From assembly GCA_013791905.1 (NCBI GenBank), contig VMSX01000030.1:74741-104740 (forward strand): a DNA stretch of 30,000 nt, in the 5' to 3' direction. The translations under genes and the position numbers were made by a program. Origin of the DNA: Rhodocyclaceae bacterium (GTDB lineage: Bacteria > Pseudomonadota > Gammaproteobacteria > Burkholderiales > Rhodocyclaceae). Numbering within the stretch: the first letter of the stretch is position 1; each line of letters starts with the position of its first letter. A model generated the notes under the pieces. That model searched no databases. It was given only the letters and a program-made list of their open reading frames with translations, and was not told the DNA's origin. Shown here in pieces: positions 3,659 through 26,638 of this stretch.

Positions 3659-3806
3659 GCCTTGCCGCCGGGCCGCCCCAAGGCAAGGCGGCACGCGGCG
3701 CCAGCCGCAATCCGCACCCAAGCTTGAATGTGGACGTCCCGTAACAGACGAGCGCAGCGAGCAACAGTCACCTCTCCCGAGAGGGAGGGGCTGGGGGAGG
3801 GCGGGT
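3659..3806 (-). repeat. Structured intergenic repeat, type A, copy A1
   Basis: The plus strand reads GCCTTGCC-gccGGGCCGCCCCAA-GGCAAGGC ... GACGAGCGCAGCGAGCAACAGTCA-CCTCTC..GGGAGG-GGCTGGGGGAGGGCGGG. It fills the whole gap between the DUF58 stop (3807) and the tgpA-like start (3648). Strand is given as the sense in which the C-rich end comes first. Confidence 0.9.
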
Positions 3807-4781
3807 CTAATTTTCATAGAGCGCGAGCGCCTTGAGGCAGGCGTGGGTGTGCTCCGGGCCATGCGCCTGGGGGATATTGCCACCAGGCAAACGCAGGCCC
3901 CAGGACACTCCGGCGGCTTCGGTGTCGAGTACCCAGCGCGTCAATACCGACAGACGTGTTTCGACATCCATGCGCTGCGGCAGCATGTCCCAGTCGAGCC
4001 AGAGCGCCTGTGCAGCCGTGCCGGTGAACTGCTTGGTTTGCAATGGCGCCTCCGGACCTTGTCGCGCGACGGCTTTCCAGGCGACGTGGTGGGGCGGGTC
4101 GCTGGGCTGGTGACGCTTGAGGCCGGCAAAATCCTCATCGCCGCTGTCACCGGGCAGGAGCCCGCCTTCGATGCCACTGAAAGTCGGCGCTGGCGGGACG
4201 GCGCTGGCCGGTTGCGGATAAACCAGGCAGGTCAGGGCAGGCACGGCATAGCTCCAGGCGCGGATCAAACCCAGTGGCCAGAGCGTTTCAATGGTGACGT
4301 GCGGCATGGCGAGCCAGCCGCGATGCGTGGCGGGCTGCGGCAGCAGCACCCGTGCGCTGCCGCCCGGTGGCACGGTCATCGCCATGACCGCCTGTCCGGG
4401 CAGGAACAAGCGCAGCAGATGGCGTGGCCGCGGGTCCGGATTGTGCAGGATCAGCGGAAAGCGCGCGGTGTCGCCGGCAAATACCGGCAGGGCGGCGCCG
4501 ACGGTGATGGAGAGTCCGGCCTGGTTCCGAAAGGTATGCAGGATCGTGGCGACCCCCAGGCCGGCAAGCAGGAAGACCAGACCGTAGCCGAGGCTCAGGT
4601 TGTAATTGATCGCGCCGATCAGCATGACGATCAGCGACACGCCATACAACAGGCCGGCCCGACTCGGCAAGACATAGACGCGGCGCTGCGAGAGGACGAC
4701 GGGCACCGCTTCGGGTGGCCGCACGCGCAGTGCCCAGGCGGTGAAACGGTTGGATAGATTGCGACGCAGAGCAGGCAGCAT
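3807..4781 (-). CDS. DUF58 domain protein (the usual partner of MoxR/TgpA-type genes)
   Basis: Two N-terminal TM helices (LLYGVSLIVMLIGAINYNLSLGYGLVFLLAGLGVATIL). The DUF58-like core is DFAGLKRHQPSDPPHHVAWKAVARQG..LQTKQF. I prefer the start at ATG 4781 (MLPALRRNL). The track start at 4841 would overlap the divergent gene. Confidence 0.75.
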   Translation of the reverse strand: MLPALRRNLSNRFTAWALRVRPPEAVPVVLSQRRVYVLPSRAGLLYGVSLIVMLIGAINYNLSLGYGLVFLLAGLGVATILHTFRNQAGLSITVGAALPVFAGDTARFPLILHNPDPRPRHLLRLFLPGQAVMAMTVPPGGSARVLLPQPATHRGWLAMPHVTIETLWPLGLIRAWSYAVPALTCLVYPQPASAVPPAPTFSGIEGGLLPGDSGDEDFAGLKRHQPSDPPHHVAWKAVARQGPEAPLQTKQFTGTAAQALWLDWDMLPQRMDVETRLSVLTRWVLDTEAAGVSWGLRLPGGNIPQAHGPEHTHACLKALALYEN

Positions 4782-4792
4782 GGCCCTATGAT

Positions 4793-5497
4793 ATGCAGCT
4801 TGCGCCGACTTTGTCTGGAGACTGCTTGAAATCAATCGCACTTTTCATCGCCTTGCTGCTGGCCTTGCTGGCCTTGCCCATGCTGCTGCCCTCCGGGCCG
4901 GGCAAGCGCCCGGACGCGAACCCTGTAACCCTACCCTGGCAAATCGAACGCCTGCCCGATGGCGGGTCGCGCGTGTTCGGCCTGACGCTAGGCCGCAGCA
5001 CGCTGGCAGATGCCCGCCAACAACTGGGCGGTGACGTGCAGGTTGCCCTGATCGTGGCGCCGGGCGAGACCGGTTCGCTCGAGGCCTATTACGAGAGCAT
5101 TCACGCCGGCGCCGTGAAGGGCAAGATGGTCCTGACGCTGGATACTTCGCTCGCGCAGCGCGAACAGATGATCGCGCGGGCGCGCAAGGTTGATTACATG
5201 CAGAGTGCGGCGCGGCGGGTCGAGCTCGGTGCTGACGACCTGCTGCAGGCGGACCGGGCAACTATCATCGCGATTGCTTTCATTCCGGCGGCGAACCTTG
5301 ACGAAGAAGTGGTGCTGCAACGCTTTGGCGTGCCGGGCGAACGACTGCGCAGCAGCGAGCACAAGGAACATTTTCTCTACCCCGACCTGGGGCTTGAGTT
5401 GCAACTCGACGCCAAGGGCAAGGAAGTGCTGCAATATGTCGCGCCCCGCGATTTTGCCCGATTGCGCGAACCGTTGGCGACTTCGACAGTGCGGTAG
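4793..5497 (+). CDS. Hypothetical exported or membrane-anchored protein
   Basis: 234-aa ORF with an N-terminal hydrophobic segment (IALFIALLLALLALPMLL) and GC3-rich codon usage. I recognise no family. An alternative TTG start exists at 4826. Confidence 0.6.
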   Translation: MQLAPTLSGDCLKSIALFIALLLALLALPMLLPSGPGKRPDANPVTLPWQIERLPDGGSRVFGLTLGRSTLADARQQLGGDVQVALIVAPGETGSLEAYYESIHAGAVKGKMVLTLDTSLAQREQMIARARKVDYMQSAARRVELGADDLLQADRATIIAIAFIPAANLDEEVVLQRFGVPGERLRSSEHKEHFLYPDLGLELQLDAKGKEVLQYVAPRDFARLREPLATSTVR

Positions 5498-5665
5498 CGG
5501 ATTTCAGTTTATTGCAGCAGTCTCGCCGCCGGGCCGCCCCAAGGCGAGACGTCACGCGGCGCCAGCCGCAAACCGCGCCCAAGCTCGACCGGGGGCTCCC
5601 CGTGATAGTCGAGCGTAGCGAGCAACAGTCACCTCCCCGTGAGGGGAGGATGGGAGGGGCGGGCT
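5498..5665 (-). repeat. Structured intergenic repeat, type A, copy A2
   Basis: GTCTCGCC-gccGGGCCGCCCCAA-GGCGAGAC ... GTCGAGCGTAGCGAGCAACAGTCA-CCTCCCC-GTGA-GGGGAGG-ATGGGAGGGGCGGGC. It fills the convergent gap from the stop at 5497 and overlaps about the last 11-12 codons of the HicA-like gene. Confidence 0.9.
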
Positions 5666-5937
5666 CTTTCCGCTTCGTACGCCGATACGCTGATGCCGGC
5701 ATGGGTGAGGAATTCCCGCAGGTGCTTGATGTCCTGCCGGTTGAAGACGCTGCCCTGGTGTGGATGGTGCAGGAAGTATTCGTGGTGGTTGAGCAGCACG
5801 CGAAACCGCGCGCCATGCACCGGTTCGACCGATGCGCCGAGATGATTCAACAGCGACTCGATCTCCCTCCAGTGGATATTGGCGCTGACAGGTTCCTGAA
5901 ACAGACTGCGCAACAGATGCAGATGTTTATGGCTCAT
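5629..5937 (-). CDS. HicA-family toxin-like protein (orphan, no HicB partner seen)
   Basis: 102 aa from ATG 5937: MSHKHLHLLRSLFQEPVSANIHWREIESLLNHLGASVEPVHGARFRVLLNHHEYFLHHPHQ..DIKHLREFLTHAGI. This matches my recollection of the YcfA/HicA pattern (..I.W.dieaL...LGa......gs......g....fHrPHp....k..v..vr.fL...G). The track start at 6060 reads through repeat B1 and the tRNA. Confidence 0.6.
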   Translation of the reverse strand: MSHKHLHLLRSLFQEPVSANIHWREIESLLNHLGASVEPVHGARFRVLLNHHEYFLHHPHQGSVFNRQDIKHLREFLTHAGISVSAYEAERARPSHPPLTGR

Positions 5938-5940
5938 GAT

Positions 5941-6025
5941 CGTGCCTCCGTAGGGCCGCCCCCAAGGGGACACGCGCCCCCCTGTGGGGGCAGCGAGTCG
6001 ATGTTGCGAGCGTGGGGGGCCATTA
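5941..6025 (-). repeat. Structured intergenic repeat, type B, copy B1
   Basis: The plus strand reads CGTGCCTCC-gtaGGGCCGCCCCCAA-GGGGACACG, then GCCCCC-ctgt-GGGGGC-AGCGAG..TGTTGCGAGCGTGGGGGGCCATTA. It lies between the tRNA-Ser 3' end (6033) and the hicA-like ATG (5937). Confidence 0.9.
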
Positions 6026-6032
6026 TTTCTCC

Positions 6033-6122
6033 TGGCGGAGGTGGTGAGATTCGAACTCACGAACGCCTTGCGACGTTGCCGGTTTTCAAGACCGGTGCAT
6101 TCAACCGCTCTGCCACACCTCC
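6033..6122 (-). tRNA. tRNA-Ser (anticodon UGA)
   Basis: The 90-nt minus-strand sequence is GGAGGTGTGGCAGAGCGGTTGAATGCACCGGTCTTGAAAACCGGCAACGTCGCAAGGCGTTCGTGAGTTCGAATCTCACCACCTCCGCCA. Acceptor stem GGAGGTG/CACCTCC, anticodon stem CCGGT/ACCGG with loop CTTGAAA, long variable arm, T-arm GTGAG-TTCGAAT-CTCAC, encoded CCA. Confidence 0.95.
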
Positions 6123-6152
6123 GTAATACTCACGAATGCGAAATGCGGCGCG

Positions 6153-6158
6153 ATTATA
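6153..6158 (-). promoter_or_regulatory. Possible -10 box (TATAAT) for tRNA-Ser
   Basis: The minus strand reads GGGCTATAATCGCGCC about 30 nt upstream of the tRNA 5' end, overlapping the stop codon of the YkgJ-like gene. There is no convincing -35. Confidence 0.3.
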
Positions 6159-6531
6159 GCCCGCCCAGCGGAGGTAGACCGTGGCGTCTGCGGGCTTCAT
6201 CGCAGGCTTCGTCGCCACAGCCGAAAGCGGTGAGTGGCGCAAATTCGCTGCAGGCGCTGGGCCGCTGCGGGTAGATGGCACAGCTCACTGCCACGCCGAC
6301 TGCGCCTTCAAGGGCGATGCAGCGCCCCGGCAGGTCGGGATGTTCGCGCATGCAGGCGGTCGTCGCGGTGTAGGGCTCGGTCATGGCGGCAGGCACCCAA
6401 CCGCCGGGCGCGCTATCGAGTTCGACGCGGGGCAGGGTGACGCGATAAGCGACGCAACAGGCGCCACAGGCCTGGCAGACAGAATCCGGAAAAATGGAGG
6501 CACCTGCCGGGACTGTCTGGCCTACCCGCAA
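6154..6531 (-). CDS. YkgJ-family cysteine-cluster (CxxCxxCC) protein
   Basis: The CQACGACC motif and further Cys residues ([26 protein letters not shown]) fit the UPF0153/YkgJ type. The start is uncertain. TTG 6531 overlaps the nrdJ stop by 10 nt. Alternatives are TTG 6549, TTG 6558 and ATG 6600 (track, 79-nt overlap). Confidence 0.65.
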
Positions 6532-9428
6532 CTGCCAACCGCCCCGCAAGCGGTGCAAAAATCGCAGCCGTCTTTTTTGATGACCGTCATGTTGCCGCAT
6601 TCGGTGCAGAGCGATCCTTGGGTGACTCTGACCTGGCCCTTTTCGCGCGGGGTTTCGAGGATGCCCATGTCGCGCGTCGGATAGCCGTTTTCATCGAGCA
6701 GGCCGAGCATGGCGTAGCGGTGCATGATGAGTCGCGCGATGTAGGCGACCGTCGATGGCCAGTTCTGCTGGCGGCGCGTCCCCGGGATGAAGGCCATGAA
6801 ATCGCCGAGCGGCTCCGAGTAGTTGAGCAGCTTGCGCAGCTTCATGCCGATCCAGGCCGGGTCCATGACGCGCATGTCGAGCGACAGCAGCTTGGTGAGG
6901 CCGTCGAGCGCCCGCGGGTAGTTGCCGGAGAGCCAGCACGAATAGGGGCGGGTGACGCCGTCGGGCAGGGTGATTTCCTTCAGGCCGAGCACGAAGTCTT
7001 CGCGCGAGGCGGGGTTGACGATATCCACCGTCCACGACAGCGTGCCGTCGGTGCCGGTCTTCGGCTCGTCGCGGCTGAACATGCAATCGAGCACCGGTGT
7101 GGCGCTGTCGTTGTCCAGCGCCCCGAGCTGCTCGCAGCGATAGCGGATCACCTGTGCCATTGCCGCGATGGCGCCCGGCATCAGCTTGTGTTCGCCATGC
7201 GGCGGCATCGGCATCTCGAAGGCTTCTTCGCCGACGGTGGCGGCCAGTACGTCGAGCTTCAACTTGAGCCAGGCCGGATCATTGGCGCGCATGTCCATCG
7301 ACAGCGTCTTGGCGACGGCGCCGAGACCGCGTGGCTGTTCGGTGCCATTCACCCAGACTTCGAAGGGAACGGACTGGCGCTTGTCATTTTCGATCTGCCC
7401 GACGAACAGGGCGAACTCGCCATGCGGGGTCTCGATCATGTAGGTCCAGGCCGCGTTGCCGTCGGTCAGGCGCGGCCGGCCGGGCCAGCGCAGCGACGAC
7501 AGCACCGGGGCGGGCAGCGAACCGATCGACAGCCGGCGGTTGGCGCAGTCGATGGTGACGTCCTGTGGCTGCTTCTGGGGGTGGGTCTGGTTGGCCGGGG
7601 TGGTCGGGGTGGTCGACAGCACGCTGCCCAGCACCTTGTTCGGCCGGTAGGTGGCCAGGCCCTTCAGTCCGGCTTTCCATGCCGACAGGTAGAGGTCCTC
7701 GAATTCCGCATAGGGATAATCCTCGGGCACATTCACCGTCTTGGAAATGGCGGTGTCGATGAAGGGGGCAACCGCCGCCACCATGTCCTTGTGCGCCTGG
7801 GCAGAAATTTCGAGGGCGGTGACGAAATAGTCCGGCAGCTTGCCGACATCGCCACCCTGGTGCTTGTAAAGCCGCCAGGCGTAGTCCTCCACGGCATATT
7901 CCTTGAAGGTGCCGTCGGACATGCGCTTCTTGCGCGTGTAGGTCCAGGAGAAGGGTGGCTCGATGCCGTTCGAGGCGTTGTCGGCGAAGGCCAGCGAAAT
8001 CGTGCCGGTCGGCGCGATTGACAGCAGGTGCGAGTTGCGGATGCCGTGCTTGCGGATCTGGTCCTTGATGTTCTGCGGCAGGCGCGAGGCGAAATTGCCG
8101 CCGGAGAGATAGAGGTCGGCGTTGAAGAGCGGGAAGGCGCCACGCTCCTTGGCGAGTTCCACCGATGCCAAATAGGCGCGATCGCGCATGTATTCGGAAA
8201 TCTTGGCGGCGGTGCTGCGGGTTTCGGCGGTGTCGTAACGTTGCCCGAGCATGATCAGTGCGTCGCCGAGGCCGGTGAAGCCCAGGCCGACGCGGCGCTT
8301 CGCCGCGGCTTCCGCCTGTTGCTGGGGCAGGGGCCAGTGGGTGGCGTCGAGCACGTTGTCGAGCATGCGCACCGAAATGTCGATGACCCGGCCGAAGGCG
8401 GCGTAATCGAAATCGGCGGTTTCCTCGAAGGGATGATTGACGAACTTGGTGAGGTTGATCGAGCCGAGGCAGCAGCAGCCATAGGGCGGCAGCGGCTGTT
8501 CGGCACAGGGGTTGGTGGCCTCGATGGTTTCGCAGTAGTTGAGGTTGTTGTCCTTGTTCATGCGGTCGATGAACAGGATGCCCGGCTCGGCGTGGTCGTA
8601 GGTCGAGCGCATCACCTGGTTCCACAACTCGCAGGCGGGAATCTTGCGATACACCCAGAGCCCGTCGTCGCGCTGGTAGGCGCCCTTGCTCTTGATGTCG
8701 GCGCAGGGTTCGGCACGATGCACCAGTTCGATGTCGCCGCCGGCTTCCACCGCCGCCATGAAGGCATCAGTGACGCCGATCGAGATATTGAAGTTCGACA
8801 GGTCGCCCTGGTCCTTGGCGTGGATGAAGCGCTCGATATCCGGATGGTCGCAACGCAGCACGCCCATCTGCGCCCCCCGGCGCGAGCCGGCCGACTCGAC
8901 CGTTTCGCAGGAGCGGTCGAAGACACGCATGTAGGAGACGGGGCCGGAGGCGCGCGACTGCGTACCCTTGACATGGGCGCCGCTCGGTCGGATGCTGGAA
9001 AAATCGTAGCCGACGCCACCGCCGCGGCGCATGGTTTCGGCGGATTGCGAGAGGGCGGTATAGATGCCGGGGCGATCATCGACGATCTCGGAGATCGAAT
9101 CGCCAACGGGTTGTACGAAACAGTTGATCAGGGTGGCGCACAGGTCGGTGCCGGCAGCCGAATTGATGCGGCCGGCCGGGACGAAGCCGTTTTCCTGGGC
9201 ATCGAGGAAGTGGGGTTCCCACCAGGCCTGTTTCTCCTCGGTCTCGACGGCGGCCAGGGCGCGGGCGACGCGGGCACGCACGTCGTGCACATCCCGTTCA
9301 TTGCCCTTGGCGTACTTCTCGAGTAGTACTTCGCCGGAGATTTCCTGTGGCAGGGGCAGACCCAGTTGCCCCGTGTATTCATCTTGAAAGTCTTGCTCAG
9401 TGTCGACGGTGGTGTGATCCATGGTCAT
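6522..9428 (-). CDS. nrdJ: Adenosylcobalamin-dependent (class II) ribonucleotide reductase
   Basis: Motifs: [58 protein letters not shown], and the C-terminal Cys-rich tail [23 protein letters not shown] prefer the start at ATG 9428 (MTMDHTT). The track GTG at 9491 directly abuts an AGGAGG, which is too close for initiation. Confidence 0.92.
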
Positions 9429-9544
9429 ATGATTGGGCCCGCTAGTTGAGTTGTGTATTGGAGACGCGACAGCAACGAAGCATAGCCACACCTCCTGATA
9501 GAGTGAAGTAAAAAATTTTTACTCACAGTTAAAACAACAAGTTA

Positions 9545-10143: not shown

Positions 10144-10244
10144 GGCGATACTCCTCTAAAGCACCGACGAATGTGCGGTGTCACTCAGTATAAACGGATG
10201 CAGGCGGGGTCACTGGCGATCAAAGCCAGATATCTCTGATCGAA

Positions 10245-11218: not shown

Positions 11219-13909
11219 ATGAACTACGAACAGCATTATCTGACCTCTCTCTTCGAGCCGAAATCGATCGCCATCATCGGCGCTTCCGAGACGCCGGGGT
11301 CAATTGGCAGCATCATGGTGCGCAATATCATCGATGGTGCCTTTCCGGGGCGGCTTTTTCTGGTCAACCCGGGCCATGACAAGGTTTTCGGTCAACGGGC
11401 CTACGCTTCGGTCGAGGATATCCCCCAGCGGCTCGATTTGGCGGTGATCTGTACCAAGGCTGAAACGGTGCCGGCCATAATAGATACCTGCGGTCGCGCC
11501 GGCACGCGCAACGCCATCATCATTTCCGGTGGTTTTGCCGAAATGGGTCCACGCGGCGCCAGTTTGTTTCGCTCCATGCTGGAAAGTGCGCGCCGCCACA
11601 ATGTGCGTCTGCTTGGCCCCAACAGCCTCGGCTTGATTCGCCCCGGCAGTTGCGTGAACGTCACCTTCGCGCACAGCAGCGCCAACCCCGGCACGGTCGG
11701 CCTGATCTCCCAGTCCGGTGCGCTCTGCACGGCGATTCTCGACTGGGCGCAGCCCAATAATGTCGGGTTTTCCAACGTCGTTTCGCTGGGTGCCGAGAGC
11801 GATGTGGACTTTGGCGAAGTGCTCGACTACATGGTCGCCGACTCCCGCACCGAAAACATTTTTCTTTACATCGAGGGCATCAAGAACGCGCGGCGCTTCA
11901 TGAGTGCGCTGCGCGCAGCAGCGCGTTGCAAGCCGGTGCTGCTGATCAAGGGCGGGCGCAACCCCGCCGGCAAGCAGGCCGCGCTGTCGCATAGCGGTGC
12001 CTTGCTCGGCTCCGACGACGTCTTCGATGCGGCATTGCGGCGTGCCGGCGTGGTGCGGCTGGGCAATGTCGGCCAGATGTTCGCCGCCGCCCAGGCCCTG
12101 TTCTCGCATTTCCGTCCGCGCGGCAATCGCCTGATGATCGTCACCAACGGCGGTGGTCTCGGCGTGATGGCGGCTGACCATGCTGCCGACATCGGCATTC
12201 CATTGGCCGCGATGTCTGAAGCCACCCTCAAACGCCTGAATGAAGCCTTGCCACCGACCTGGTCGAAAGCCAATCCGATTGACCTGGTTGGCGATGCCGA
12301 TCCGGCGCGTTATGCCAGCACGATCACCGCCTGTCTCGAAGATGACGGGGTCGATGGTGTGCTGGCGATCCTCGCACCGCAGGCGCTGGCCGATCCGACG
12401 CAGACTGCCCGTGCCGTCATTGAGGTGGCGAAAAAGACCGACAAGCCGCTGGTGACCTGCTGGATGGGTGAAGAGCAGGTGCGTGAGGCACGTCTGCTGT
12501 TCCAGGGGGCCGGCATTCCCACCTTCCGGACGACGGATCCTGCCGTCGAACTGTTCTCGCACATTTCCAACTACTACCGCAACCAGCAATTGCTGATGCA
12601 GGCGCCGGCATCGATTTCCGATCACACGCCGCCACGCCTGGAATCGGCGCGCCTGGTGATCGAATCCGCCCTGGCCGAAGGCCGCAAGTCGCTCAACGAA
12701 ATGGAATCGAAGGCCCTGCTGGCGGCCTTCCGCATTCCCATTGCCCAGACGGTGGTGGCGCGCTCGCCTTCCGAAGCCATGGTGCTGGCCGAGGAAATGG
12801 GCCTGCCGGTGGTGATGAAGATCGATTCGCCGCAAATCACCCATAAACTGGATTCGGGCGGTGTGCGCCTCAATCTCAATGCGCTGGTCGCCGTACGCGA
12901 TGCCTACAACCAGATCATCGACGAGGTGAAGAAGAATCGGCCCGATGCGGTCATTCATGGCATCGCCATCGAGCCGATGATCCAGAAGGCCAATGGTCGC
13001 GAACTGATGGTCGGCATGACGAAGGATCCGATTTTCGGTCCGACCGTCATCTTTGGCCCCGGCGGGGCGGGTATCGTGGCCAGCGGCAAGGATCGTGCAG
13101 TTGCCCTGCCACCGCTCAACCGTTTTCTGGTTGCCGATATGCTGGCGTCCACCCGCACCTCGGCACGGCTCGGCGAATTCCGCAACATGCCGCCGGTCAG
13201 CATGGAGGCGCTGGAAGCCGTGCTGCTGCGTGTTTCCGAGATGGTCTGCGAATTGCCCTGGATTCAGGAACTGGACATCAATCCGCTGATCGTCGATGAG
13301 AATGGCGCGGTCGCCGTCGATGCCCGCGTCGTCATCGACAATCTGTCGCTGACTGCCGGGCGCTACGATCACATGGTGATCCACCCCTACCCGTCGCACC
13401 TGGTCACGGAATACCAGGCCAAGGACGGCCGCACTGTCGTGATTCGTCCGATCAGTCCGGAAGATGGCGACCTGGAACAGGACTTCGTCAAGAACCTGTC
13501 GGCAGAAACCAAGTATTTCCGTTTCATGAACACCCTGCGCGAACTGTCACAGGCCCAGTTGGTGCGTCTGACGCAGATCGACTACGACCGCGAAATGGCT
13601 TTCGTCGCCTTGACCGAGGTGGATGGATGTCAGATTGAAGTCGGCGTGGCGCGTTATGCCATGAACCCCGATGGCGAATCCTGCGAATTTGCCGTGGTCG
13701 TCGCCGATGACTGGCAGGGCAAGGGACTGGCGCGCCGGTTGATGGGCGTGATCATCGATACGGCCCGTTCGCGCGGCATCAAGTTCATGAACGGCGATTT
13801 CCTCGCTGAAAACCGCCGCATGATCAAGTTTGTTTCCGGCCTCGGCTTCGTGCTCTCGCCGCATCCCGAAGACCCCGGCCTCAAGCGCGGCGTGCTGGTG
13901 CTTAATTGA
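11219..13909 (+). CDS. pat: Protein lysine acetyltransferase, Pat/PatZ architecture (NDP-forming acyl-CoA synthetase-like domains plus C-terminal GNAT)
   Basis: 896 aa. N-terminal CoA-binding region (KSIAIIGASETPGSIG..), a central ATP-grasp-like region, and C-terminal GNAT motif A (VVADDWQGKGLARRLM). Confidence 0.85.
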   Translation: MNYEQHYLTSLFEPKSIAIIGASETPGSIGSIMVRNIIDGAFPGRLFLVNPGHDKVFGQRAYASVEDIPQRLDLAVICTKAETVPAIIDTCGRAGTRNAIIISGGFAEMGPRGASLFRSMLESARRHNVRLLGPNSLGLIRPGSCVNVTFAHSSANPGTVGLISQSGALCTAILDWAQPNNVGFSNVVSLGAESDVDFGEVLDYMVADSRTENIFLYIEGIKNARRFMSALRAAARCKPVLLIKGGRNPAGKQAALSHSGALLGSDDVFDAALRRAGVVRLGNVGQMFAAAQALFSHFRPRGNRLMIVTNGGGLGVMAADHAADIGIPLAAMSEATLKRLNEALPPTWSKANPIDLVGDADPARYASTITACLEDDGVDGVLAILAPQALADPTQTARAVIEVAKKTDKPLVTCWMGEEQVREARLLFQGAGIPTFRTTDPAVELFSHISNYYRNQQLLMQAPASISDHTPPRLESARLVIESALAEGRKSLNEMESKALLAAFRIPIAQTVVARSPSEAMVLAEEMGLPVVMKIDSPQITHKLDSGGVRLNLNALVAVRDAYNQIIDEVKKNRPDAVIHGIAIEPMIQKANGRELMVGMTKDPIFGPTVIFGPGGAGIVASGKDRAVALPPLNRFLVADMLASTRTSARLGEFRNMPPVSMEALEAVLLRVSEMVCELPWIQELDINPLIVDENGAVAVDARVVIDNLSLTAGRYDHMVIHPYPSHLVTEYQAKDGRTVVIRPISPEDGDLEQDFVKNLSAETKYFRFMNTLRELSQAQLVRLTQIDYDREMAFVALTEVDGCQIEVGVARYAMNPDGESCEFAVVVADDWQGKGLARRLMGVIIDTARSRGIKFMNGDFLAENRRMIKFVSGLGFVLSPHPEDPGLKRGVLVLN

Positions 13910-13910
13910 A

Positions 13911-14099
13911 CCATCCCCCCGCCCCCCTTCCCCGGGAAGGGGGTGGCTGTGGTTCACTGCGCTCGAATATTATGGGCGACTCCGTTGCGACGGTGGTGCG
14001 GCTTGCGCCTGAGGCGCGTGTCCTCACGGCTTGGGGCGGCCCGGCGCCGTGACTGAGCCAAGCGGTGAAATTACAAAAGTCGGCGCTGACAAGACGGCG
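13911..14099 (+). repeat. Structured intergenic repeat, type A, copy A3 (with flank extension)
   Basis: The plus strand is the C-rich-first sense: CCATCCCCCCG-CCCCCTTCC-ccg-GGAAGGGGG..CACTGCGCTCGAA ... TCACGGC-TTGGGGCGGCCCGGC-GCCGTGA, then GGTGAAATTACAAAAGTCGGCGCTGACAAGACGGCG. That last stretch is homologous to the flank of A5. The copy starts 1 nt after the pat stop and overlaps the 5' end of tag. Confidence 0.85.
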
Positions 14100-14664: not shown

Positions 14665-15066
14665 CTAAGCGGCGCGCGGTTCTATGTGCGTGCGTAGCCA
14701 AGCGGCGAATTCGGCTTCCGGAAGTTCGCCGGCGGCGAGGTCCAGCATGGTGACGACGCACTCGGCATCTCCTGCAACCAGGTCGTAGCCGTTAAGCGCC
14801 AGAAACAGTTCAGTCGCAATTAGCGCAGTACGCTTGTTGCCATCGACGAAGGGATGGTTGCGGACGATGCCGAATCCATATGTTGCAGCGAGTGCGGCGA
14901 CATCGGGATCGTCATAGGCAGCAAGGTTCTCAGCCCGGGCCAACGCGGAATCAAGCAAGCCGGCGTCGCGGGTTCCCGCAGCTCCGCCATGCTCGGCCAA
15001 TTGTGCGCTGTGGGCGGCAATGATCACATTCCGTTGAATCCATACCCAGCGGCTCTCAAGAAACAC
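14665..15066 (-). CDS. doc: Doc (death-on-curing, Fic-fold) toxin
   Basis: ..RWVWIQRNVIIAAHSAQLAEHGG..GIVRNHPFVDGNKRTALIATELFLALNG contains the Fic/Doc motif HxFxDGNKR. The start is either GTG 15066 (MFLESRWVW) or TTG 15081 (track). Both lie within the hairpin of repeat B3. Confidence 0.85.
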   Translation of the reverse strand: MFLESRWVWIQRNVIIAAHSAQLAEHGGAAGTRDAGLLDSALARAENLAAYDDPDVAALAATYGFGIVRNHPFVDGNKRTALIATELFLALNGYDLVAGDAECVVTMLDLAAGELPEAEFAAWLRTHIEPRAA

Positions 15067-15142
15067 GCCGGGCCGTCCCAAGTGTTTCTTGGCCCCTTGA
15101 GGGGAGAACCGAGCGCAGCGAATGTTTGCGGGGTGGGCTCAT
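15056..15142 (-). repeat. Structured intergenic repeat, type B, copy B3 (most diverged)
   Basis: The plus strand reads CAAGAAACAC-gccGGGCCGTCCCAA-GTGTTTCTTG-GCCCCTTGAGGGG..GAGCGCAGCGAATGTTTGCGGGGTGGGCTCAT. It occupies the whole antitoxin-toxin junction. Confidence 0.8.
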
Positions 15143-15363
15143 TTGGCCAGCTCGCGTAAGGCGGCGCGGCGCTTCTTCATGATGCGTTGCGCTTCGCTCA
15201 TCTGTTGCTCAAATGCTGGGTCGTTTGGCGTGACCACATACCCGTCCGGGGTTTCGGTCAGAAAGAGTGATTCGCCTTTCTCCAGCTTCAGATTGGCGAG
15301 GACTTCCTTGGGCAGGATGACGCCGATCGAGTTGCCGATCTGGGTCAGTTTGAGGACGTGCAT
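15139..15363 (-). CDS. AbrB/MazE/SpoVT-type antitoxin (Phd-equivalent partner of Doc)
   Basis: 74 aa: MHVLKLTQIGNSIGVILPKEVLANLKLEKGESLFLTETPDGYVVTP is a typical swapped-hairpin (AbrB-like) antitoxin N-terminus. GGAG lies 7 nt before the ATG. Confidence 0.85.
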   Translation of the reverse strand: MHVLKLTQIGNSIGVILPKEVLANLKLEKGESLFLTETPDGYVVTPNDPAFEQQMSEAQRIMKKRRAALRELAK

Positions 15364-15420: not shown

Positions 15421-18000
<2,580 letters not shown>

Positions 18001-18055: not shown

Positions 18056-18102
18056 CTCTAGACGACCGGGGCATAATACGCACCAACAAAAAAGGGGGGG
18101 GA

Positions 18103-19849: not shown

Positions 19850-20365
19850 ATGGCCGGGAAAAGCGAAAACTTCAGCGATCTCAATCGCAGGAATATGGAA
19901 GCCGCCATGCGGCTGGCGCAGATGTCCATCGAGAATTCACAACGCGTGATGACGCTGCAGAATGAATTGGCACGCGAAATGTTCCAGCAGGGCGTAGAGA
20001 ATGCCCGTAACCTGACGAGTGCCAAGGATCCGCAGCAGCTTATGCAACTGCGCACCCAGTACGCGCAGGAAACCGCCCAGCAGATGATGGTGGCGGCGCA
20101 GAAAGTTGCCGAAATCGGCAATGATGCCCGTGCGGAATTTACCCGCATGCTCACCGAGCAACTGGCGTCCGGCAACCAGGAAATGGTCGACGCCTTCCAG
20201 GGTTTTTTCAAGTCCATGCCCGGGCAAAATACGAACATCATGGAAGTCATGCAGCAGTCCATGGCGACGGCCAACAGCGCTTTCGAGCAGATTGCCCAAG
20301 CGTCGGCCGCAGCCTTCGGCGGCATGCCCGGCGTTGCGCCGAAAAGCGCTGCAAAGAAGAAGTAA
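19850..20365 (+). CDS. Phasin-family PHA granule-associated protein
   Basis: 171 aa, alanine/glutamine-rich and helical: NMEAAMRLAQMSIENSQRVMTLQNELAREMFQQGVENARNLTSAKDPQQLMQLRTQYAQE. AAGGAG lies 7 nt before the ATG. Confidence 0.8.
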   Translation: MAGKSENFSDLNRRNMEAAMRLAQMSIENSQRVMTLQNELAREMFQQGVENARNLTSAKDPQQLMQLRTQYAQETAQQMMVAAQKVAEIGNDARAEFTRMLTEQLASGNQEMVDAFQGFFKSMPGQNTNIMEVMQQSMATANSAFEQIAQASAAAFGGMPGVAPKSAAKKK

Positions 20366-20369
20366 GATT

Positions 20370-20508
20370 CCTTCCCCCGCCCCCTCCCATGTGAGGGGGT
20401 GAAGTTCCTCGCTGCGCTCGCTTGTTACGGGGTGGTTTTGTTCCTGTCGGGAGCGGGTTGCGGCTTCGCCGCGTGCCGTCCTACCTTGGGGCGGCCCGGC
20501 GGCAGGAC
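20370..20508 (+). repeat. Structured intergenic repeat, type A, copy A4
   Basis: The plus strand is the C-rich-first sense: CCTTCCCCCG-CCCCCTC-ccatgt-GAGGGGG..CCTCGCTGCGCTCGCT ... GTCCTACC-TTGGGGCGGCCCGGC-GGCAGGAC. It starts 4 nt after the phasin stop. A degenerate flank extension (CACAAAGGTCGCTGCG) may reach about 20551. Confidence 0.85.
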
Positions 20509-20554
20509 TGTACTGTTATTCCTTTACCGTTAGGCCTTCACAAAGGTCGCTGCG

Positions 20555-21061
20555 TTAATCCGGTTGCCAGCGTTTTGCAGCGAGGTCGTCTGTCGTGCGC
20601 GCATCGACCCAGCGGCCCCCCTCCGGGGTCTCTTCCTTTTTCCAGAACGGTGCCTGGGTCTTGAGATAGTCCATGATGAATTCGCAGGCGGCGAAGGCGT
20701 CGCCGCGATGCGCGGAGGAAACCCCGACAAAGACGATGCGTTCGCCTGGTAGCAGGCGGCCGACGCGATGGATGACGCGCACCGTGCGCAGTTCCCAGCG
20801 TTTTTGCGCAGCAGCCACGATGTCGGCCAGCGCCTGTTCGGTCATGCCGGGGTAGTGTTCCAGCGTCATCGCCGTTACTGCGGCGGGGCGCTCCGGCTGT
20901 GACGCCGTCTCGCCAGAGCCGGCTTTTTGCTCAGCCAGTTTGTCGGCGCGAACCAGGCCGACGAAGCTGGCGACCGCGCCCGCCATGGGATCTGCGGCGC
21001 TTAGCGCGGCGATCTCGGTGCCGACATCAAAATCGGCAACCTGGACGCTAACCTCTTTCAT
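20555..21061 (-). CDS. moaE: Molybdopterin synthase catalytic subunit
   Basis: ASFVGLVR..TLEHYPGMTE..VGVSSAHRGDAFAACEFIMDYLKTQAPFWKKE. I place the start at ATG 21061 (MKEVSVQV). The track start at 21082 lies inside repeat B2. Confidence 0.9.
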   Translation of the reverse strand: MKEVSVQVADFDVGTEIAALSAADPMAGAVASFVGLVRADKLAEQKAGSGETASQPERPAAVTAMTLEHYPGMTEQALADIVAAAQKRWELRTVRVIHRVGRLLPGERIVFVGVSSAHRGDAFAACEFIMDYLKTQAPFWKKEETPEGGRWVDARTTDDLAAKRWQPD

Positions 21062-21164
21062 GCCCTCGCAGGGCCGCCCCAAGAGGGCATGCGCCCCCCG
21101 TCACCGCTTCGGGTGATTTCATGGGGGGCAGCGAGCTGTTTATTGCGAGCGTGGGGGGCCATTA
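21059..21164 (-). repeat. Structured intergenic repeat, type B, copy B2
   Basis: The plus strand reads CATGCCCT-cgcaGGGCCGCCCCAAG-AGGGCATG, then GCCCCCC-(GTCACCgcttcgGGTGAt..)-GGGGGGC-AGCGAG..TTGCGAGCGTGGGGGGCCATTA. It fills the moaD-moaE junction. Confidence 0.9.
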
Positions 21165-21165
21165 A

Positions 21166-21411: not shown

Positions 21412-21418
21412 GGCTGGA

Positions 21419-23121: not shown

Positions 23122-24404
23122 GATGCTGTTACTCCAAGGACCGGGGCGAAACCCCCGCCGGGGGTCCGCAGATTGGCTGTCTGGCCTTGCCAGAGGCGGG
23201 CGGATACGAGTTGGACTGCGCCACTGTAGACGAAGTTGCGCAGGTCGACCTTGAGCTCGGTCATTTCCCCGGCGACCTCCACCTTGCGCAGCGAGGGAGG
23301 CGCCAAGGCTTGTGCAACATAGACGCCCTGCAGCACCTCGTCGAACACGCGCTTGGTGATCTTGTCGCCGCGATAGGCGGCTTTCGAGGCGTAACCCGTC
23401 GCGGGTTTGAAGAACAGTTGCTTGCGTCTCGCCCAGAAATCATCGGCACGCTCAAGTGTGACCAACTCGGTGCGCGGTATGGCGGACAACAACAGTGCAC
23501 GCGATTCGGCAGCGACGCCCCAGCTTTCGAGCAGGGCGGCGTCGGTCAGCGCGCAGAGGTTGCGCTTGTCGGCGTACAGGGCGTGGGCGAAGGGGTGCGG
23601 GGTGACAACGGCGACGCCGCGCAGGATGGCTTCGCGCAGGACGGCGTGGGCATTCTCGGTGAGGTCGAAATCGGTCAGGCGGTTGTAGACCAGGTCGACG
23701 CGGGTTTCTCCGTGGTCGCATGACAGCCATAGTCCGCCATGACAGAGCATCAACTCGCGCGGGTCGCAGATCAGCGCCTGCAGGCCGTGGCGGGCGAACA
23801 GGCGGCGGAACAGTTCGAACTCGGGTTGCAGGTACTGGCCGGCCGGATCGTCGTCGACGATGGCGATGGTGGTCAGGGGCGTGTCGCCGCGTTCCAGCCG
23901 CCATTCGTTGCGGAACATCTCGATGAACATTTCCGCCGGATCGTGGCGGGCCAGTTCGCCTGGCAGCACAATCTTGCTGGCGGCGGCTTCCGGGCAACAA
24001 CTGCGCTGGGCGTGGGCGAGGATGGCGTTGAGCAGCCCGCCGCCGGCATTGGTGTTGATCTCGATGAGTTGCGGGCCGGCGGCGCTCATGTGAAAGTCAT
24101 AGCCGAAAAACACGCTTTGCGCCCGGGGTTCCGGGAAAGCGGAATTCGCGATGCCGATGTGCTGGCGATAGGCCGGCAGTGCCGTCACCTGTTCGATGGC
24201 GGCGATGACAGCTGCCATGCGGGCGAGGTCGTGCGCGCCGACAAACACGGTCACGTCCGAAAACATGTGTGGCCGTGGGGCGATCACAGTGTCCCAGAAA
24301 TCGGGGGCCTCGTGTTCGAGCGCGCTGCGCAAGGCAGCGCGATCCAGCGATTGGCAGATGCAGCCGGTGTTCAAGCTTTCAGCCAGGGTGCGGCATTGGG
24401 TCAT
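23118..24404 (-). CDS. Conserved hypothetical protein, apparently a circularly permuted ATP-grasp fold
   Basis: An ATP-grasp C-terminal-type motif sits near the N-terminus (FGYDFHMSAAGPQLIEINTNAGGG). It is followed by VDLVYNRLTDFDL, LYADKRNL, FFKPATGYASKAAYRG and GQTANLRTPGGGFAPV. The ATG at 24404 overlaps the dinG stop by 1 nt (TGATG). The function call is from pattern memory only. Confidence 0.5.
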   Translation of the reverse strand: MTQCRTLAESLNTGCICQSLDRAALRSALEHEAPDFWDTVIAPRPHMFSDVTVFVGAHDLARMAAVIAAIEQVTALPAYRQHIGIANSAFPEPRAQSVFFGYDFHMSAAGPQLIEINTNAGGGLLNAILAHAQRSCCPEAAASKIVLPGELARHDPAEMFIEMFRNEWRLERGDTPLTTIAIVDDDPAGQYLQPEFELFRRLFARHGLQALICDPRELMLCHGGLWLSCDHGETRVDLVYNRLTDFDLTENAHAVLREAILRGVAVVTPHPFAHALYADKRNLCALTDAALLESWGVAAESRALLLSAIPRTELVTLERADDFWARRKQLFFKPATGYASKAAYRGDKITKRVFDEVLQGVYVAQALAPPSLRKVEVAGEMTELKVDLRNFVYSGAVQLVSARLWQGQTANLRTPGGGFAPVLGVTAS

Positions 24405-26389
24405 CAAACAAGCTCCGCCTCAAAAAAAGCTTCGACATCGGCCAGTTCCCGGCTGCGTCGCATCGGTGGCAAGGACTGCCAGATGCGGCGGCCATAGGAT
24501 TTGCCGATCAGCCGCGGGTCGCACACCATCAGCACGCCGCGGTCGACTTCGTCGCGGATCAGGCGCCCGGCGCCCTGTTTCATGCTGATGACGGCACGCG
24601 GCAACTGTACCTCGAAAAACGCATTGCGGCCCTGCTGTTTCAGGCTGTCGATGCGTGCCGCCAGCACCGGATCGTCCGGCGGGGCGAACGGCAGCTTGTC
24701 GATCACCACCAGCGAAAGCGCCGCGCCACGGACATCGACGCCTTCCCAGAAACTCTGGCTGGCCACCAGCACGGCATTGCCTAGTTGGCGGAAGCGGTCG
24801 AGCAGTTCCGACTTCGAGCATTCGCCCTGCAGCAGCAGCGGCATCTCGGCGCCGGCCGCGGCAATCCGGGTGGCCAGCAACTCGTGGATGCGGCGCATGG
24901 CGCGCAGCGAGGTGCACAGCACGAAGGCGCCGCCGCGCGCTGCGCTCGACGCGCGAATGACCGGCCAGGCGGCTTCGACCACCGCTTCCGAATAATCGGG
25001 ATGGTTCGGCTCGGGCAAGCCCTGCGGGCAATACAGCAAGGCGTTCGCCGGGTAGTCGAAGGGACTGTCCCAGCGGCCCGTCGTCGCCTCGCTCAAGCCC
25101 AGCGCCTGCTGGTAATGGCTGAAATCGCTGCCGACCGCGAGCGTCGCCGAGGTGAATATCCAGGCGCGCGGATGGCCTTCCAGTTGGCGGCGAAAGATGT
25201 TGGCCACTGACAGCGGCGTGAGATTCAGGGTCACTGCATAGGTGCCGACCTCGACCCAGCGCACGTAAATCTCTTCTACATCACTTGTAGTCGCCGTTCC
25301 GCCAGCGCCGACTTTCTGTGTCTGCCAGTGTCGCAGTTGAAAAATGGTTTCACCACAGCGGCGCAGGCAGTTGGCGAGGCCTTCGGAACGTCCGGCCTGG
25401 CTTTCGATATGCTTGTTCAACTCGTCCAGCGTGCCTTGCAATTCCGCCAGCGCCGCTACCGCCGCCTCGTGCGTTTGCCACTGGGCGAACGACAGCCGCA
25501 TGCCTTCGTGCTTGAATGCCAGGCGCAGATCCTTGGTGGCTTTTTCCAGCGCGCGCGCGGCGTCCTGCAGCGGCGTGTAGTCCTTGGCGGCGGCGATGCC
25601 TTCCAGCTTCACGTCGCGCGCCAGATCGAGCAGCTGGCCGGTGCCGATGGCCTCGCCGAAAAACAGGCCGGCGACCTCGGGCAACTGGTGGGCCTCGTCG
25701 AAGATGACGGTATTGCAGGCCGGCAGCAGTTCGCCCATGCCGTCGTCCTTGAGCATGACATCGGCGAAAAACAGATGGTGATTCACCACCACCACATCGG
25801 CGGCCAGCGCCTCGCGGCGGGCGGCCACCACAAAGCATTCCTTGACGTAGGCGCATTCCTGGCCGAGGCAGTTGTCGCGTGTCGAGGTGGCCAGCGGCCA
25901 GGCGCCGGAATCGTCCGGCACGTCGCGGCACTCGGCCTTGTCGCCGGTCGCCGTCGCTTTGGCGAAGCGGGCGATGGCATTCAGGTGGATGACTTCGGCG
26001 CGTGAATTGAGTCGCCCGCCGGCCAGCGACCGTTCGAGGTGATACGGGCAGACGTAATTCGAACGCCCCTTCAACAGCGCCACTGTCGCCGGCACGCCCA
26101 GCGCTTTCCGCACGGTCGGCAGGTCGCGGTTGAAGAGCTGGTCCTGCAGGGTCTTGGTGCCGGTGGAAATGATCACCTTGCCACCGGACAATAGCGCGGG
26201 CGCCAGGTAGGCAAAGGTCTTGCCCGTGCCGGTACCCGCTTCGGCGATCAGCAGATCGTTGGCTTCGATGGCGGCGAGAACCCGGCGTGCCATATCGACC
26301 TGCTGATCGCGCAGGCGGTAACCTTCAATGGCCCGCGCGAGCGGTCCATCGGCAGCGAAGAGGCGTTCGAGATCAGGTTTGGCAGGCAT
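24404..26389 (-). CDS. dinG: ATP-dependent DNA helicase, DinG/YoaA family (Fe-S, XPD-like)
   Basis: Walker A EAGTGTGKTFAYL, DEAH box VIFDEAHQL, a Cys cluster (NYVCPYH .. AECRD .. DNCLGQECAYVKEC), and C-terminal QGAGRLIRDE. Confidence 0.88.
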   Translation of the reverse strand: MPAKPDLERLFAADGPLARAIEGYRLRDQQVDMARRVLAAIEANDLLIAEAGTGTGKTFAYLAPALLSGGKVIISTGTKTLQDQLFNRDLPTVRKALGVPATVALLKGRSNYVCPYHLERSLAGGRLNSRAEVIHLNAIARFAKATATGDKAECRDVPDDSGAWPLATSTRDNCLGQECAYVKECFVVAARREALAADVVVVNHHLFFADVMLKDDGMGELLPACNTVIFDEAHQLPEVAGLFFGEAIGTGQLLDLARDVKLEGIAAAKDYTPLQDAARALEKATKDLRLAFKHEGMRLSFAQWQTHEAAVAALAELQGTLDELNKHIESQAGRSEGLANCLRRCGETIFQLRHWQTQKVGAGGTATTSDVEEIYVRWVEVGTYAVTLNLTPLSVANIFRRQLEGHPRAWIFTSATLAVGSDFSHYQQALGLSEATTGRWDSPFDYPANALLYCPQGLPEPNHPDYSEAVVEAAWPVIRASSAARGGAFVLCTSLRAMRRIHELLATRIAAAGAEMPLLLQGECSKSELLDRFRQLGNAVLVASQSFWEGVDVRGAALSLVVIDKLPFAPPDDPVLAARIDSLKQQGRNAFFEVQLPRAVISMKQGAGRLIRDEVDRGVLMVCDPRLIGKSYGRRIWQSLPPMRRSRELADVEAFFEAELV

Positions 26390-26441
26390 GGCGGGCGCGG
26401 CATGGTAGCACGCGACATCTCAACTCTATTCGGCAAACAAA

Positions 26442-26638
26442 CGCCGTCCAGCCAGCGCCGACTTTTCTGATTTAACCCTCCCCAACTGTAGCCTTGCCGC
26501 CGGGCCGCCCCAAGGCAAGGCGGCACGCGGCGCCAGCCGCAAACCGCACCGCTACCAGAACAAAGCTCCGCGTGATAGACGAGCGCAGCGAGCAACAGTC
26601 ACCTCCCCCGTGAGGGGGAGGATGGGAGGGGGCGGGGC
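26442..26638 (-). repeat. Structured intergenic repeat, type A, copy A5 (with flank extension)
   Basis: The plus strand reads CGCCGTCCAGCCAGCGCCGACTTTTCTGATTTAACC..GCCTTGCC-gccGGGCCGCCCCAA-GGCAAGGC ... GACGAGCGCAGCGAGCAACAGTCA-CCTCCCCC-GTGA-GGGGGAGG-ATGGGAGGGGGCGGGGC. It ends directly against the cysK stop codon (26639). Confidence 0.9.

Follow-up and report, generated by a model that had tools for sequence, protein, structure and literature searches.

The closest described relative of the repeats treated here is the Beta-proteobacterial repeat element (BRE), a unit of ~90 bp that was named by Hot et al. (2011; BMC Genomics 12:207, PMC3110155) and whose function was given as unknown. BREs were reported from Bordetella, Polaromonas, Delftia, Acidovorax, Rhodoferax, and Azoarcus EbN1, often as tandem copies; in B. 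pertussis, one BRE is covered by a ~70-80-nt RNA, BprJ1, which runs in GGGCCGCCCAAG orientation, antisense to the genes on either side (PMC3110155). Here, we examine a family of structured repeats in a 30,000-nt stretch of DNA from a member of the Rhodocyclaceae (assembly GCA_013791905.1, contig VMSX01000030.1, positions 74,741 to 104,740; hereafter the window, whose own numbering is used throughout). A more general counterpart is provided by the repetitive extragenic palindromic (REP) elements and the bacterial interspersed mosaic elements (BIMEs). In Escherichia coli, REPs located near stop codons affect translation and mRNA decay.

The window contains five long copies (type A; A1 to A5) and three short copies (type B; B1 to B3). 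All eight had been recognised as an unnamed repeat family in a first-pass annotation made from the letters of the window, and each of them was recovered here as a member of a genuine family. B1 and B2 are identified by alignment as BREs. The long form of ~150 nt represented by A1-A5 is a composite new to the literature, which combines BRE hairpin 1, the AGCGA core, two more hairpins, and a G-rich tail. B3 is intermediate between type B and type A. The family as a whole very probably belongs to a BRE superfamily of REP-like repeats. Its strongest regularity, absent from the first-pass annotation, is a strict position and polarity relative to genes.

Copies, identity, and fold of the repeats

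The 13-nt loop motif GGGCCGCCCCAAG has six exact occurrences in the window: on the plus strand at 3670, 5531, 21071, and 26502, and on the minus strand at 14030-14042 and 20485-20497. The two other copies carry precisely the variants first described for them, namely one extra C in B1 (5953) and a C>T exchange in B3 (15070). With up to two mismatches allowed, the motif was matched 11 times, as compared to 2.3 matches expected by shuffling, and none of 100 shuffled sequences reached this number.

The boundaries of type A were determined with a covariance model, which was built from 23 long copies and run against the window. The copies obtained were A1 at 3654-3807 (plus strand; 157.7 bits), A2 at 5515-5665 (plus; 144.3 bits), A3 at 13908-14058 (minus; 120.7 bits), A4 at 20363-20513 (minus; 129 bits), and A5 at 26486-26638 (plus; 157 bits). 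The long copies as first annotated are real, while three of their ends, the start of A2 (5498), the end of A3 (14099), and the start of A5 (26442), had to be revised; the excess 5' stretches assigned to A3 and A5 are a separate 25-nt word, CGCCGTCCCGCCAGCGCCGACTTTC. The short copies are all located on the plus strand: B1 (5939-6026) between tRNA-Ser (6033-6122, minus strand) and a small HicA-like open reading frame (ORF), B2 (21057-21163) between moaD and moaE, and B3 (15056-15143) between a MazE-like antitoxin gene and a Fic gene. The mosaic nature of the copies is seen in A1 and A5, which share 98% identity across 61 nt, then have unrelated centres, and then a common 3' part.

Copies outside the window were obtained by scanning genomes, one per species, for the exact pattern and metagenomes for type A, and all counts given for them refer to the matches listed. 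Three published Bordetella BREs could be aligned, block for block, with B1, B2, and 32 further short copies; the blocks in common are GGGCCG.CCC.AAG, CCCCC..GGGGGCAGC.A, and GCGTGGGGG. It is this alignment with the supplementary Bordetella sequences that equates type B with the BRE. B3 matches the Bordetella BRE in part only. It consists of hairpin 1, a short GCCCC/GGGG hairpin, the A-type core CGAGCGCAGCGA, and a G-rich tail, and B3-like copies are also present in loci L090 and L033. Type A has the first hairpin and the CAGCGA/GAGCGCAGCGA core in common with the BRE, and nothing more. The label 'unnamed' is therefore withdrawn for type B (PMC3110155) and stands for type A, of which no description was found in our literature search. 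The same search revealed no BRE study later than 2011, nothing on REP-associated tyrosine transposases (RAYTs) in Rhodocyclales or on relay ORFs in repeats and, at the level of full texts, no publication in which the loop or core strings occur. When the whole window was scanned permissively against Rfam 15 (E<=1), one of the checks suggested by the first-pass annotation, the repeats gave no match, and the scan returned just tRNA-Ser and a sub-threshold sX4 RNA over that tRNA. The latter candidate (5972-6134, minus strand; 26 bits versus a gathering score of 70) was rejected; it arises from tRNA-Ser plus part of B1.

Every hairpin arm and second hairpin quoted in the first-pass annotation was confirmed in the sequence. 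In A1, hairpin 1 occupies 3659-3689 (plus strand), with arms at 3659-3666 and 3682-3689 and the loop GCC-GGGCCGCCCC-AA. It is followed by a further covarying hairpin that had been overlooked; in A1, this hairpin 2 (3695-3708, plus strand) reads GCGGC-GCCA-GCCGC. Across copies, this form alternates with GCGCC-GCCA-GGCGC, and about eight compensated variants are known in all, including GTTCG/CGAAC, GCCGG/CCGGC, and GCGCG/CGCGC. The 3' module, as exemplified by A5 (26581-26638, plus strand), comprises the core GAGCGCAGCGAGCAACAGTCACC (26581-26603), the hairpin CCTCCCCC-GTGA-GGGGGAGG (26602-26621), and the G-rich tail. At the foot of type A hairpin 1, AG is invariant (the G being the first stem base) and is preceded by C, T, or G; GTAG or GCAG is common there but not universal, and type B has CATG in this position.

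Covariation in type A was counted over four helices in a MAFFT alignment, not fitted to structure, of 23 copies from the window and other genomes. Paired bases were found in 96.7% of cells, as compared to 84.1% in column shuffles and 45-54% when the partners were slid by 1-3 columns. Both-sided changes occurred in 61 cells versus 18 after shuffling, the observed value being reached in 0 of 500 shuffles. In hairpin 1 of type A, 99.5% of cells were paired, and six of the eight pairs showed double changes. For type B together with the three Bordetella BREs, the corresponding values were 95.0% versus 87.5% paired and 59 versus 17 double-change cells. These compensating changes, which exceed the shuffled and the slid controls, support the initial proposal that the paired stems reflect selection on a single-stranded RNA or DNA fold and not decaying duplicates.

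Among the 146 long copies listed from genomes and metagenomes, hairpin 1 has 47 distinct stems, at least 24 of them perfectly Watson-Crick. The initial statement that the arms vary freely does not hold for type A, however: the stems GCGTTTGC, GTCTCGCC, and GCCTTGCC recur in many genomes and together account for 64 of the 133 parsed type A copies listed. Covariation in type A thus mostly separates sub-families. Type B stems are compensated locus by locus.

The invariance of the loop outside the window is partly a matter of ascertainment, since both collection scans demanded the loop; the window is an unbiased sample, in which six of the eight loops are exact while the copies are otherwise ~70-83% identical. 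A 3-bp GGG/CCC apical helix may be formed within the conserved loop. It is replaced by GTG/CAC in one copy elsewhere, and the commonest loop variant (C>T) retains the pairing as G.U. A pseudoknot between loop and tail (CCGCCCC with GGGGCGG) was considered and dropped: the segments are complementary, but an invariant loop leaves covariation powerless.

Placement at gene junctions

In what follows, the annotated strand is the one on which the elements were first read, and the gene strand is its complement. Among the type A copies listed with adequate flanks, 77 of 106 have on the gene strand a long ORF with high G+C content at third codon positions that stops near the G-rich tail, and in 65 of those 77 the stop lies -6 to +9 nt from the element end. 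In five more copies, the ORF enters the tail and, as it does in A2, ends at a conserved TGA, which is located ~40 nt inside the element. On the gene strand, type A thus opens with a C-rich stretch directly after a stop codon. Distances on the head side are scattered (0-130 nt), and hairpin 1 of type A is often distant from any start codon. The idea that the stop codon is supplied by the element was rejected; all three stops adjoin type A tails, with TAA just ~2-fold enriched.

The five long copies in the window follow this pattern. A1 lies between two minus-strand genes, its tail being 1 nt from the TAG stop of the gene at 3807-4841 (minus strand). In A2, the tail is traversed by a small minus-strand ORF (5632-5937), whose stop codon is the conserved TGA of the GGTGACTG block. 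The tail of A3 adjoins the TAA stop of an acyl-CoA synthetase gene (11219-13909, plus strand); that of A4, which is located between the convergent phasin and moaE genes, adjoins the phasin stop; and that of A5 is flush with the TAA stop of a gene for a pyridoxal phosphate (PLP)-dependent enzyme (26639-27568, minus strand).

Type B occupies operon junctions, between the stop of one gene and the start of the next. A gene-sense stop codon is located -8 to +18 nt from the head in 29 of 40 copies. The opposite end harbours the translation start of the next gene, whose Shine-Dalgarno sequence and start codon are embedded in the 3' arm of hairpin 1, with GGAGGCATGATG as the typical form. In folding predictions for the gene-strand RNA of B2 and B3, the downstream start falls within hairpin 1.

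Between these two points, most type B copies contain a mini-ORF on the gene strand. It begins with an ATG that often overlaps the upstream stop (TAATG or TGATG) and is in several copies preceded by its own AAGGAG or GGAG Shine-Dalgarno sequence. After 24-35 codons, it terminates at the start codon of the downstream gene (ATGA). A head ATG is present in 30 copies, of which 24 are open to a stop located 2-24 nt beyond the loop, as compared to 9.7 expected for a random frame; this count is inflated by the shared ancestry of sub-families. The mini-ORF of B1 (5934-6023, minus strand) has 29 codons, GGAG before its ATG, and a TGA that overlaps the ATG of the HicA-like ORF (ATGA). In B2 (21058-21162, minus strand), the mini-ORF of 34 codons starts 3 nt past the moaD TAG, and its TGA overlaps the moaE ATG (ATGA). 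That of B3 (15056-15142, minus strand; 28 codons) has an ATG overlapping the TGA of the antitoxin gene (ATGA) and stops 8 nt inside fic. Two length classes of type B read their 3' half in different frames (..GGRMPPWGGPAEA and ..GAHASLGAARREA), and both end on the downstream start; a stem longer by 1 nt in the second class (GAHASLGAARREA) does not displace the stop from the start codon. Different frames with the same endpoint imply that it is not the peptide that is conserved but the act of translating to that point.

The genes of the window are ordinary chromosomal ones, which include those for ribonucleotide reductase, clpB, phasin, mobB-moeA-moaD-moaE, a DinG-like helicase, PLP-dependent enzymes, and tRNA-Ser. 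Toxin-type genes follow two of the three short copies: B3 is situated at the junction of the MazE-like antitoxin gene and the Fic gene (14665-15363), and B1 before ORF 5632-5937, for which the HicA match is sub-threshold. In a MoaE homologue (P0002; 190 aa), the called N-terminus MGRPCEDMKEVSVQ (MGRPCED) is the BRE loop in translation (GGGCGGCCCTGCGAGGAC) joined to MoaE.

Distribution and spread

The matches listed included Rhodocyclaceae, Methyloversatilis, Sulfuritalea, Sulfurisoma, Sulfuricella, Georgfuchsia, and several Burkholderiales; the true matches among them were almost all from Betaproteobacteria. More than 100 further type A copies were among the matches listed from metagenomes. 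Tandem copies occur in L047, L057, L058, L042, L040, and L117. Unannotated BRE-like matches were detected on replicons of Burkholderia, Azoarcus KH32C, Acidovorax, and Rhodoferax, and a search for type A in plasmids gave no match. The match on a Rhodoferax plasmid (H7) overlaps a Fic gene annotation. Most false matches to the loop pattern (L006-L116, actinomycete loci) were ACC GGC CGC CCC AAG GGC, the coding sequence of the motif TSGTTGRPKG in AMP-binding enzymes. Such codon-based false positives are a warning for genome-wide counts of the motif.

Evidence of turnover was obtained by comparing the mobB-moeA-moaD-moaE-phasin-clpB stretch of the window with the syntenic stretches of L117, L118, and L119 (Sulfuricystis). 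The moaD-moaE junction is empty in L118 and L119, with a spacer of 1-2 nt, and is occupied by a BRE in the window and in L117. The two occupied sites have the same stem, CATGCCCT/AGGGCATG, and L117 contains two copies in tandem. A4 is missing from all three relatives. With the covariance model (E<0.001), 2, 0, and 0 copies were detected in the 16.5-kb syntenic stretches of the relatives versus 8 in the 30-kb window. Comparison of the filled and empty moaD-moaE sites revealed no clear target duplication.

A predicted viral contig from IMG/VR (L236) carries two 100% identical 78-nt units (467-545 and 2906-2983) with sharp edges at different gene junctions. BRE-type units are also present between genes of the predicted phages or prophages L237, L239, and L243. 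The first-pass annotation had named a miniature inverted-repeat transposable element with terminal inverted repeats and target-site duplications as the alternative under which the copies would be ordinary transposon relics. In the two L236 units, which start with CATCATGCCCTCC and finish with GAGCGTGGGGG, the ends are not mutual inverted repeats and the flanks have no common direct repeat; these hallmarks being absent, the units are not transposon relics of that type. Their flanks contain different in-frame ATGs, 8 and 11 nt upstream. A target duplication of ATG, or insertion within the first codons of the downstream gene, is compatible with both L236 and the moaD-moaE sites, neither being provable from them.

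Another trace of spread is a nested 21-nt hairpin, GTCACCGCTTCGGGTGATTTCAT, which is inserted in the loop of the second hairpin of B2 (21095-21118), in frame with the mini-ORF, and recurs in L040 (~6710-6733), a non-homologous locus in another species. Larger inserted modules with further hairpins, such as GCCGGCAAAGCCGGC, were seen in the type A copies of L033, L038, L052, and L070. Taken together, the empty sites in relatives, the identical units in L236, and a variant shared by non-homologous loci point to copy-and-paste spread. It is likely that the family is mobile or was so in the past. Copy-and-paste multiplication without terminal inverted repeats or target duplication is documented for the short form, its mechanism being a matter of inference.

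Apparently the same operon junctions carry a BRE across genera. Such copies are located at a tctB-tctA-like junction in a Burkholderiaceae genome and in Rubrivivax (L084 and L099) and at a livG-livF-like junction in Hydrogenophaga and in a Rhodocyclales genome (L066 and L103). It may be that the copies have long been retained or that junctions of one sort have been used more than once.

The separate word bordering A3 and A5 forms a second repeat of the window, (C)GCCGTyCCGCCAGCGCCGACTTTy, of 25-26 nt. It occurs on the minus strand at 4179-4203 and 14064-14090 and on the plus strand at 16426-16450, 25292-25316, and 26442-26466, with a weaker copy at 20902-20928 (plus strand). With up to one mismatch, its core was matched 136 times across the loci examined, including L117, L118, and L119, and the matches have sharp edges; in DNA of the Rhodocyclaceae type, the word is thus vastly over-represented. 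Approximately three quarters of the matches are part of predicted coding sequence, where both strands and several reading frames are used; translated, the word reads, for example, KVGAGGTA in clpB, the DinG-like helicase, and the MoaE variable loop, and AVPPAPTF at other sites. A word akin to the DNA uptake sequences (DUS) would be expected to show such a pattern, and one of its ends, GCCGTC, resembles the Neisseria DUS core. No publication containing the string was found.

Explanations and comparison with known repeats

Elements placed so precisely at gene junctions must be compatible with the expression of their neighbours or contribute to it. The explanation we favour, in which belief and doubt are about evenly matched, is that the repeats form one mosaic family of non-autonomous, copy-and-paste elements of the REP/BIME kind, which would be kept where operon expression stays intact. 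Copies persist nearly exclusively at gene junctions and in one orientation, in which the gene strand of the element would be read within the mRNA of its neighbours. In the short form, the ATG at or near the upstream stop would open the mini-ORF of 24-35 codons; ribosomes would translate through the hairpins and so reach the 3' arm of the conserved-loop hairpin, which holds the Shine-Dalgarno sequence and the start codon of the next gene; and the mini-ORF would stop on that start (ATGA or TGATG overlap). Translation of the downstream gene would thereby stay coupled to that of the upstream gene despite an insertion of 80-105 nt. That the short form acts as a translational relay of this sort is, in our judgement, an even call. 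The long form, which begins 0-9 nt past the stop codon, may act in the manner of REP/BIME as a compact 3'-end or insulating structure; its position is directly observed, and this role is put forward tentatively and is rather less than likely. The near-invariant loop GGGCCGCCCCAAG would probably be the contact for a trans-acting factor, either a mobilising enzyme or an RNA-binding protein. In a more elaborate and quite unlikely version, the short elements would be mobile relay cassettes, ~80-nt units with their own Shine-Dalgarno sequence, ATG, and ORF ending on the downstream ATG, a hairpin-locked start, and a loop read by a dedicated factor, and the long form would join the same recognition hairpin to a 3' module abutting the stop. 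The cassettes would insert at, or slightly within, the beginning of a cistron, and the family would then both rewire and report translational coupling at dozens of junctions in operons.

A number of observations weigh against this explanation. The anatomy of the relay is directly visible, and from it we infer co-transcription, translation of the mini-ORF, and coupling. The Bordetella BREs have no mini-ORF, the period of their tandem arrays (83-86 nt) is no multiple of three, and relative to genes they mostly have the other orientation; the differences in ORF and period would make the relay a feature of the present branch and not of all BREs. In chromosomal bins, the median identity of copies is 0.72, none exceeds 0.95, and copies within a genome are no closer than those between genomes, so that there is no sign of recent chromosomal activity. 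The signals of strand are weak and point the wrong way. Hairpin 1 has 14 G.U wobbles on the annotated strand versus 5 of the A.C type, which correspond to the gene strand, and the C>T variant of the apical helix gives G.U in at least four copies and A.C in none. BprJ1, the sole experimental datum, was detected in the orientation of the annotated strand, too, with a probe that would also detect other BRE copies.

The fold may be one of RNA or of single-stranded DNA (ssDNA), and it may be formed by either strand. Watson-Crick covariation is symmetrical and therefore cannot tell the strands apart. The wobbles of hairpin 2 (6 on the annotated strand versus 5 on the gene strand) and the folding z-scores of 70 long copies (-1.22 on the annotated versus -1.00 on the gene strand; p=0.09) do not separate them. 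The wobble counts were parsed by hand; automated hairpin calling was dropped, as C- and A-rich composition gave false A.C pairs. GC skew was discarded as a cue to replication direction, since it follows the coding strand here and is silent on replication. The strand data would be reconciled if the structure of one strand served for spread and the gene-strand features resulted from selection.

The main rival to the favoured explanation is that the elements are purely selfish and mobilised as ssDNA, being REP/RAYT-like or derived from IS200/IS605, with hairpins and loop serving only for recognition by a trans-acting transposase and the gene context (stop abutment, polarity, and mini-ORF) reflecting only those insertions that selection tolerates; the copies would have no function for the host. 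We regard this as unlikely, albeit as the alternative with most in its favour. The sharp ends of the L236 units lack terminal inverted repeats and target duplications, as do REP and IS200-type elements; the (N)AG at the foot of hairpin 1 is invariant and often GTAG or GCAG; stems fall into discrete sub-families like REP classes; copy number expands lineage by lineage; and the G.U excess is on the strand antisense to genes, where a role in mRNA would not select for it. On the other hand, the window is free of any transposase or RAYT-like gene, as first noted, and a tblastn search with E. coli RayT (E<=1), a distant and short-reaching query, found nothing in the window or in the 1.63 Mb around >250 copies, a span smaller than the whole genomes; this result counts against the favoured explanation as well. 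Copies are single or in direct tandem and do not form the inverted pairs of REPINs (REP doublets forming hairpins): no inverted doublets were found, and a single inverted pair ~630 nt apart in L090 is not REPIN-like. The old copies within genomes, with their median identity of 0.72, keep both stems and loop, which is easier to understand if each is selected, and apparently orthologous copies are retained across genera (L084 and L099; the window and L117).

Selection at the level of mRNA would also be expected of a dispersed cis-regulatory element, in which a global RNA-binding protein or a small RNA binds the loop and controls the hairpin over the ribosome-binding site, making the junctions a regulon. 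In agreement with such a role, the 3' arm of hairpin 1 contains, in most type B copies, the Shine-Dalgarno sequence and start codon of the downstream gene, type B stems are compensated locus by locus, and the loop is far more conserved than the rest (6 of 8 exact in the window). It is improbable, however, given that the neighbours are functionally unrelated (moaE, fic, the HicA-like ORF, livF-like, tctA-like, and phage genes), that a ribosome on the mini-ORF would strip off the bound factor, and that hairpin 1 of type A is often far from a start codon; we know of no factor that binds the loop. Still less probable are independent small-RNA genes on the annotated strand, cis-antisense to the flanking mRNAs. 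BprJ1 is a precedent, being located on a BRE in the same orientation and antisense to both neighbours, and the slight G.U excess and the folding of A1, A2, and A5 on the annotated strand (z of -3 to -4 versus shuffles) fit this view. The z advantage is gone over 70 copies, though, and in type B the sequence upstream on the annotated strand is the coding region of the neighbour. No sigma-70-like promoter or intrinsic terminator was detected at any of the eight copies, with terminators sought on either strand and counts equal to those in shuffles, and the Northern probe used in Bordetella would detect other BREs, most of which are co-oriented with the upstream gene. A role as Rho-independent terminator was rejected on the same grounds, as no terminator-like site was found on the full element on either strand in the window.

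We strongly disfavour the view that type B is a duplicated gene for a small protein of ~27 aa, MAPHARKPGSLPPTGGRMPPWGGPAEA. Although 24 of 30 copies have an ATG, sometimes with a Shine-Dalgarno sequence, and 24-35 open codons, the 3' half is read in two frames (GGRMPPWGGPAEA, GAHASLGAARREA), conservation is at the nucleotide level with third positions included, changes in run length shift the frame internally, and the Bordetella BREs have no ORF. Chance similarity, or neutrally decaying duplicated DNA without structural constraint, might be invoked because high G+C content makes short complementary runs common; the motif count above shuffles, covariation above the shuffled and slid controls, and dozens of compensated stems refute it with near certainty. 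Integron attC sites, retrons, and CRISPR were dropped as candidates, the elements being devoid of their defining boxes or repeat-spacer layout.

The BRE belongs to a mosaic family of much greater extent, which is abundant in Rhodocyclaceae and in related bacteria of wastewater and groundwater. Selected hairpins and a placement at stop and start codons that is near-exact to the nucleotide are added to what was described in 2011. If the relay is real, a selfish repeat can sit in an operon without breaking translational coupling, and gene callers would often misannotate such junctions, as in P0002. In practical terms, the family is a marker that causes assembly breaks and variable-number tandem repeats, and its loop offers a handle for finding a protein that would read it.

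In comparison with the Bordetella BREs, type B belongs to the same length class (78-107 nt here; 75-91 bp in Bordetella) and has the same order of blocks, and both are intergenic, occur in tandem copies, and are found in Betaproteobacteria. The Bordetella elements differ by U-run/A-run arms of hairpin 1, one C fewer in the loop, and a U6 stretch after the second hairpin; on their reverse strand, GCCCCC-N3-GGGGGC followed by T6 resembles an intrinsic terminator. Their orientation to genes differs, most being co-oriented the other way. The published description (PMC3110155) contains no secondary structure, covariation, mini-ORF, stop/start positioning, or type A.

Small non-autonomous repeats within host transcripts or, in Rickettsia, within ORFs are likewise represented by the Correia/NEMIS elements of Neisseria, the enterobacterial repetitive intergenic consensus (ERIC) sequences, and the Rickettsia palindromic elements, which survive where they are harmless. 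Unlike the present family, Correia and ERIC elements have terminal inverted repeats, Correia also has TA duplications, and the Rickettsia elements insert in frame within proteins. To our knowledge, none of the three has a relay ORF that runs from start to stop and terminates on the following gene's start codon. The likeness to REP/BIME and REPINs is closer and includes high copy number, extragenic location, hairpin units, module mosaics, occurrence in 3' untranslated regions and between cistrons, and the lack of terminal inverted repeats and target duplications; the (G)YAG conserved at the hairpin foot of REPs has a counterpart in many, but not all, type A copies. REPs, however, conserve the stem, whereas the present family varies the stem and conserves a large 15-nt loop; REPINs are inverted pairs, whereas the copies described here are single or in direct tandem, with no RAYT found in the span searched and a strict polarity to genes. 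Accordingly, the family is not categorically new: its short form is the BRE, and its long form represents a new composite variant within the REP/BIME-like class.

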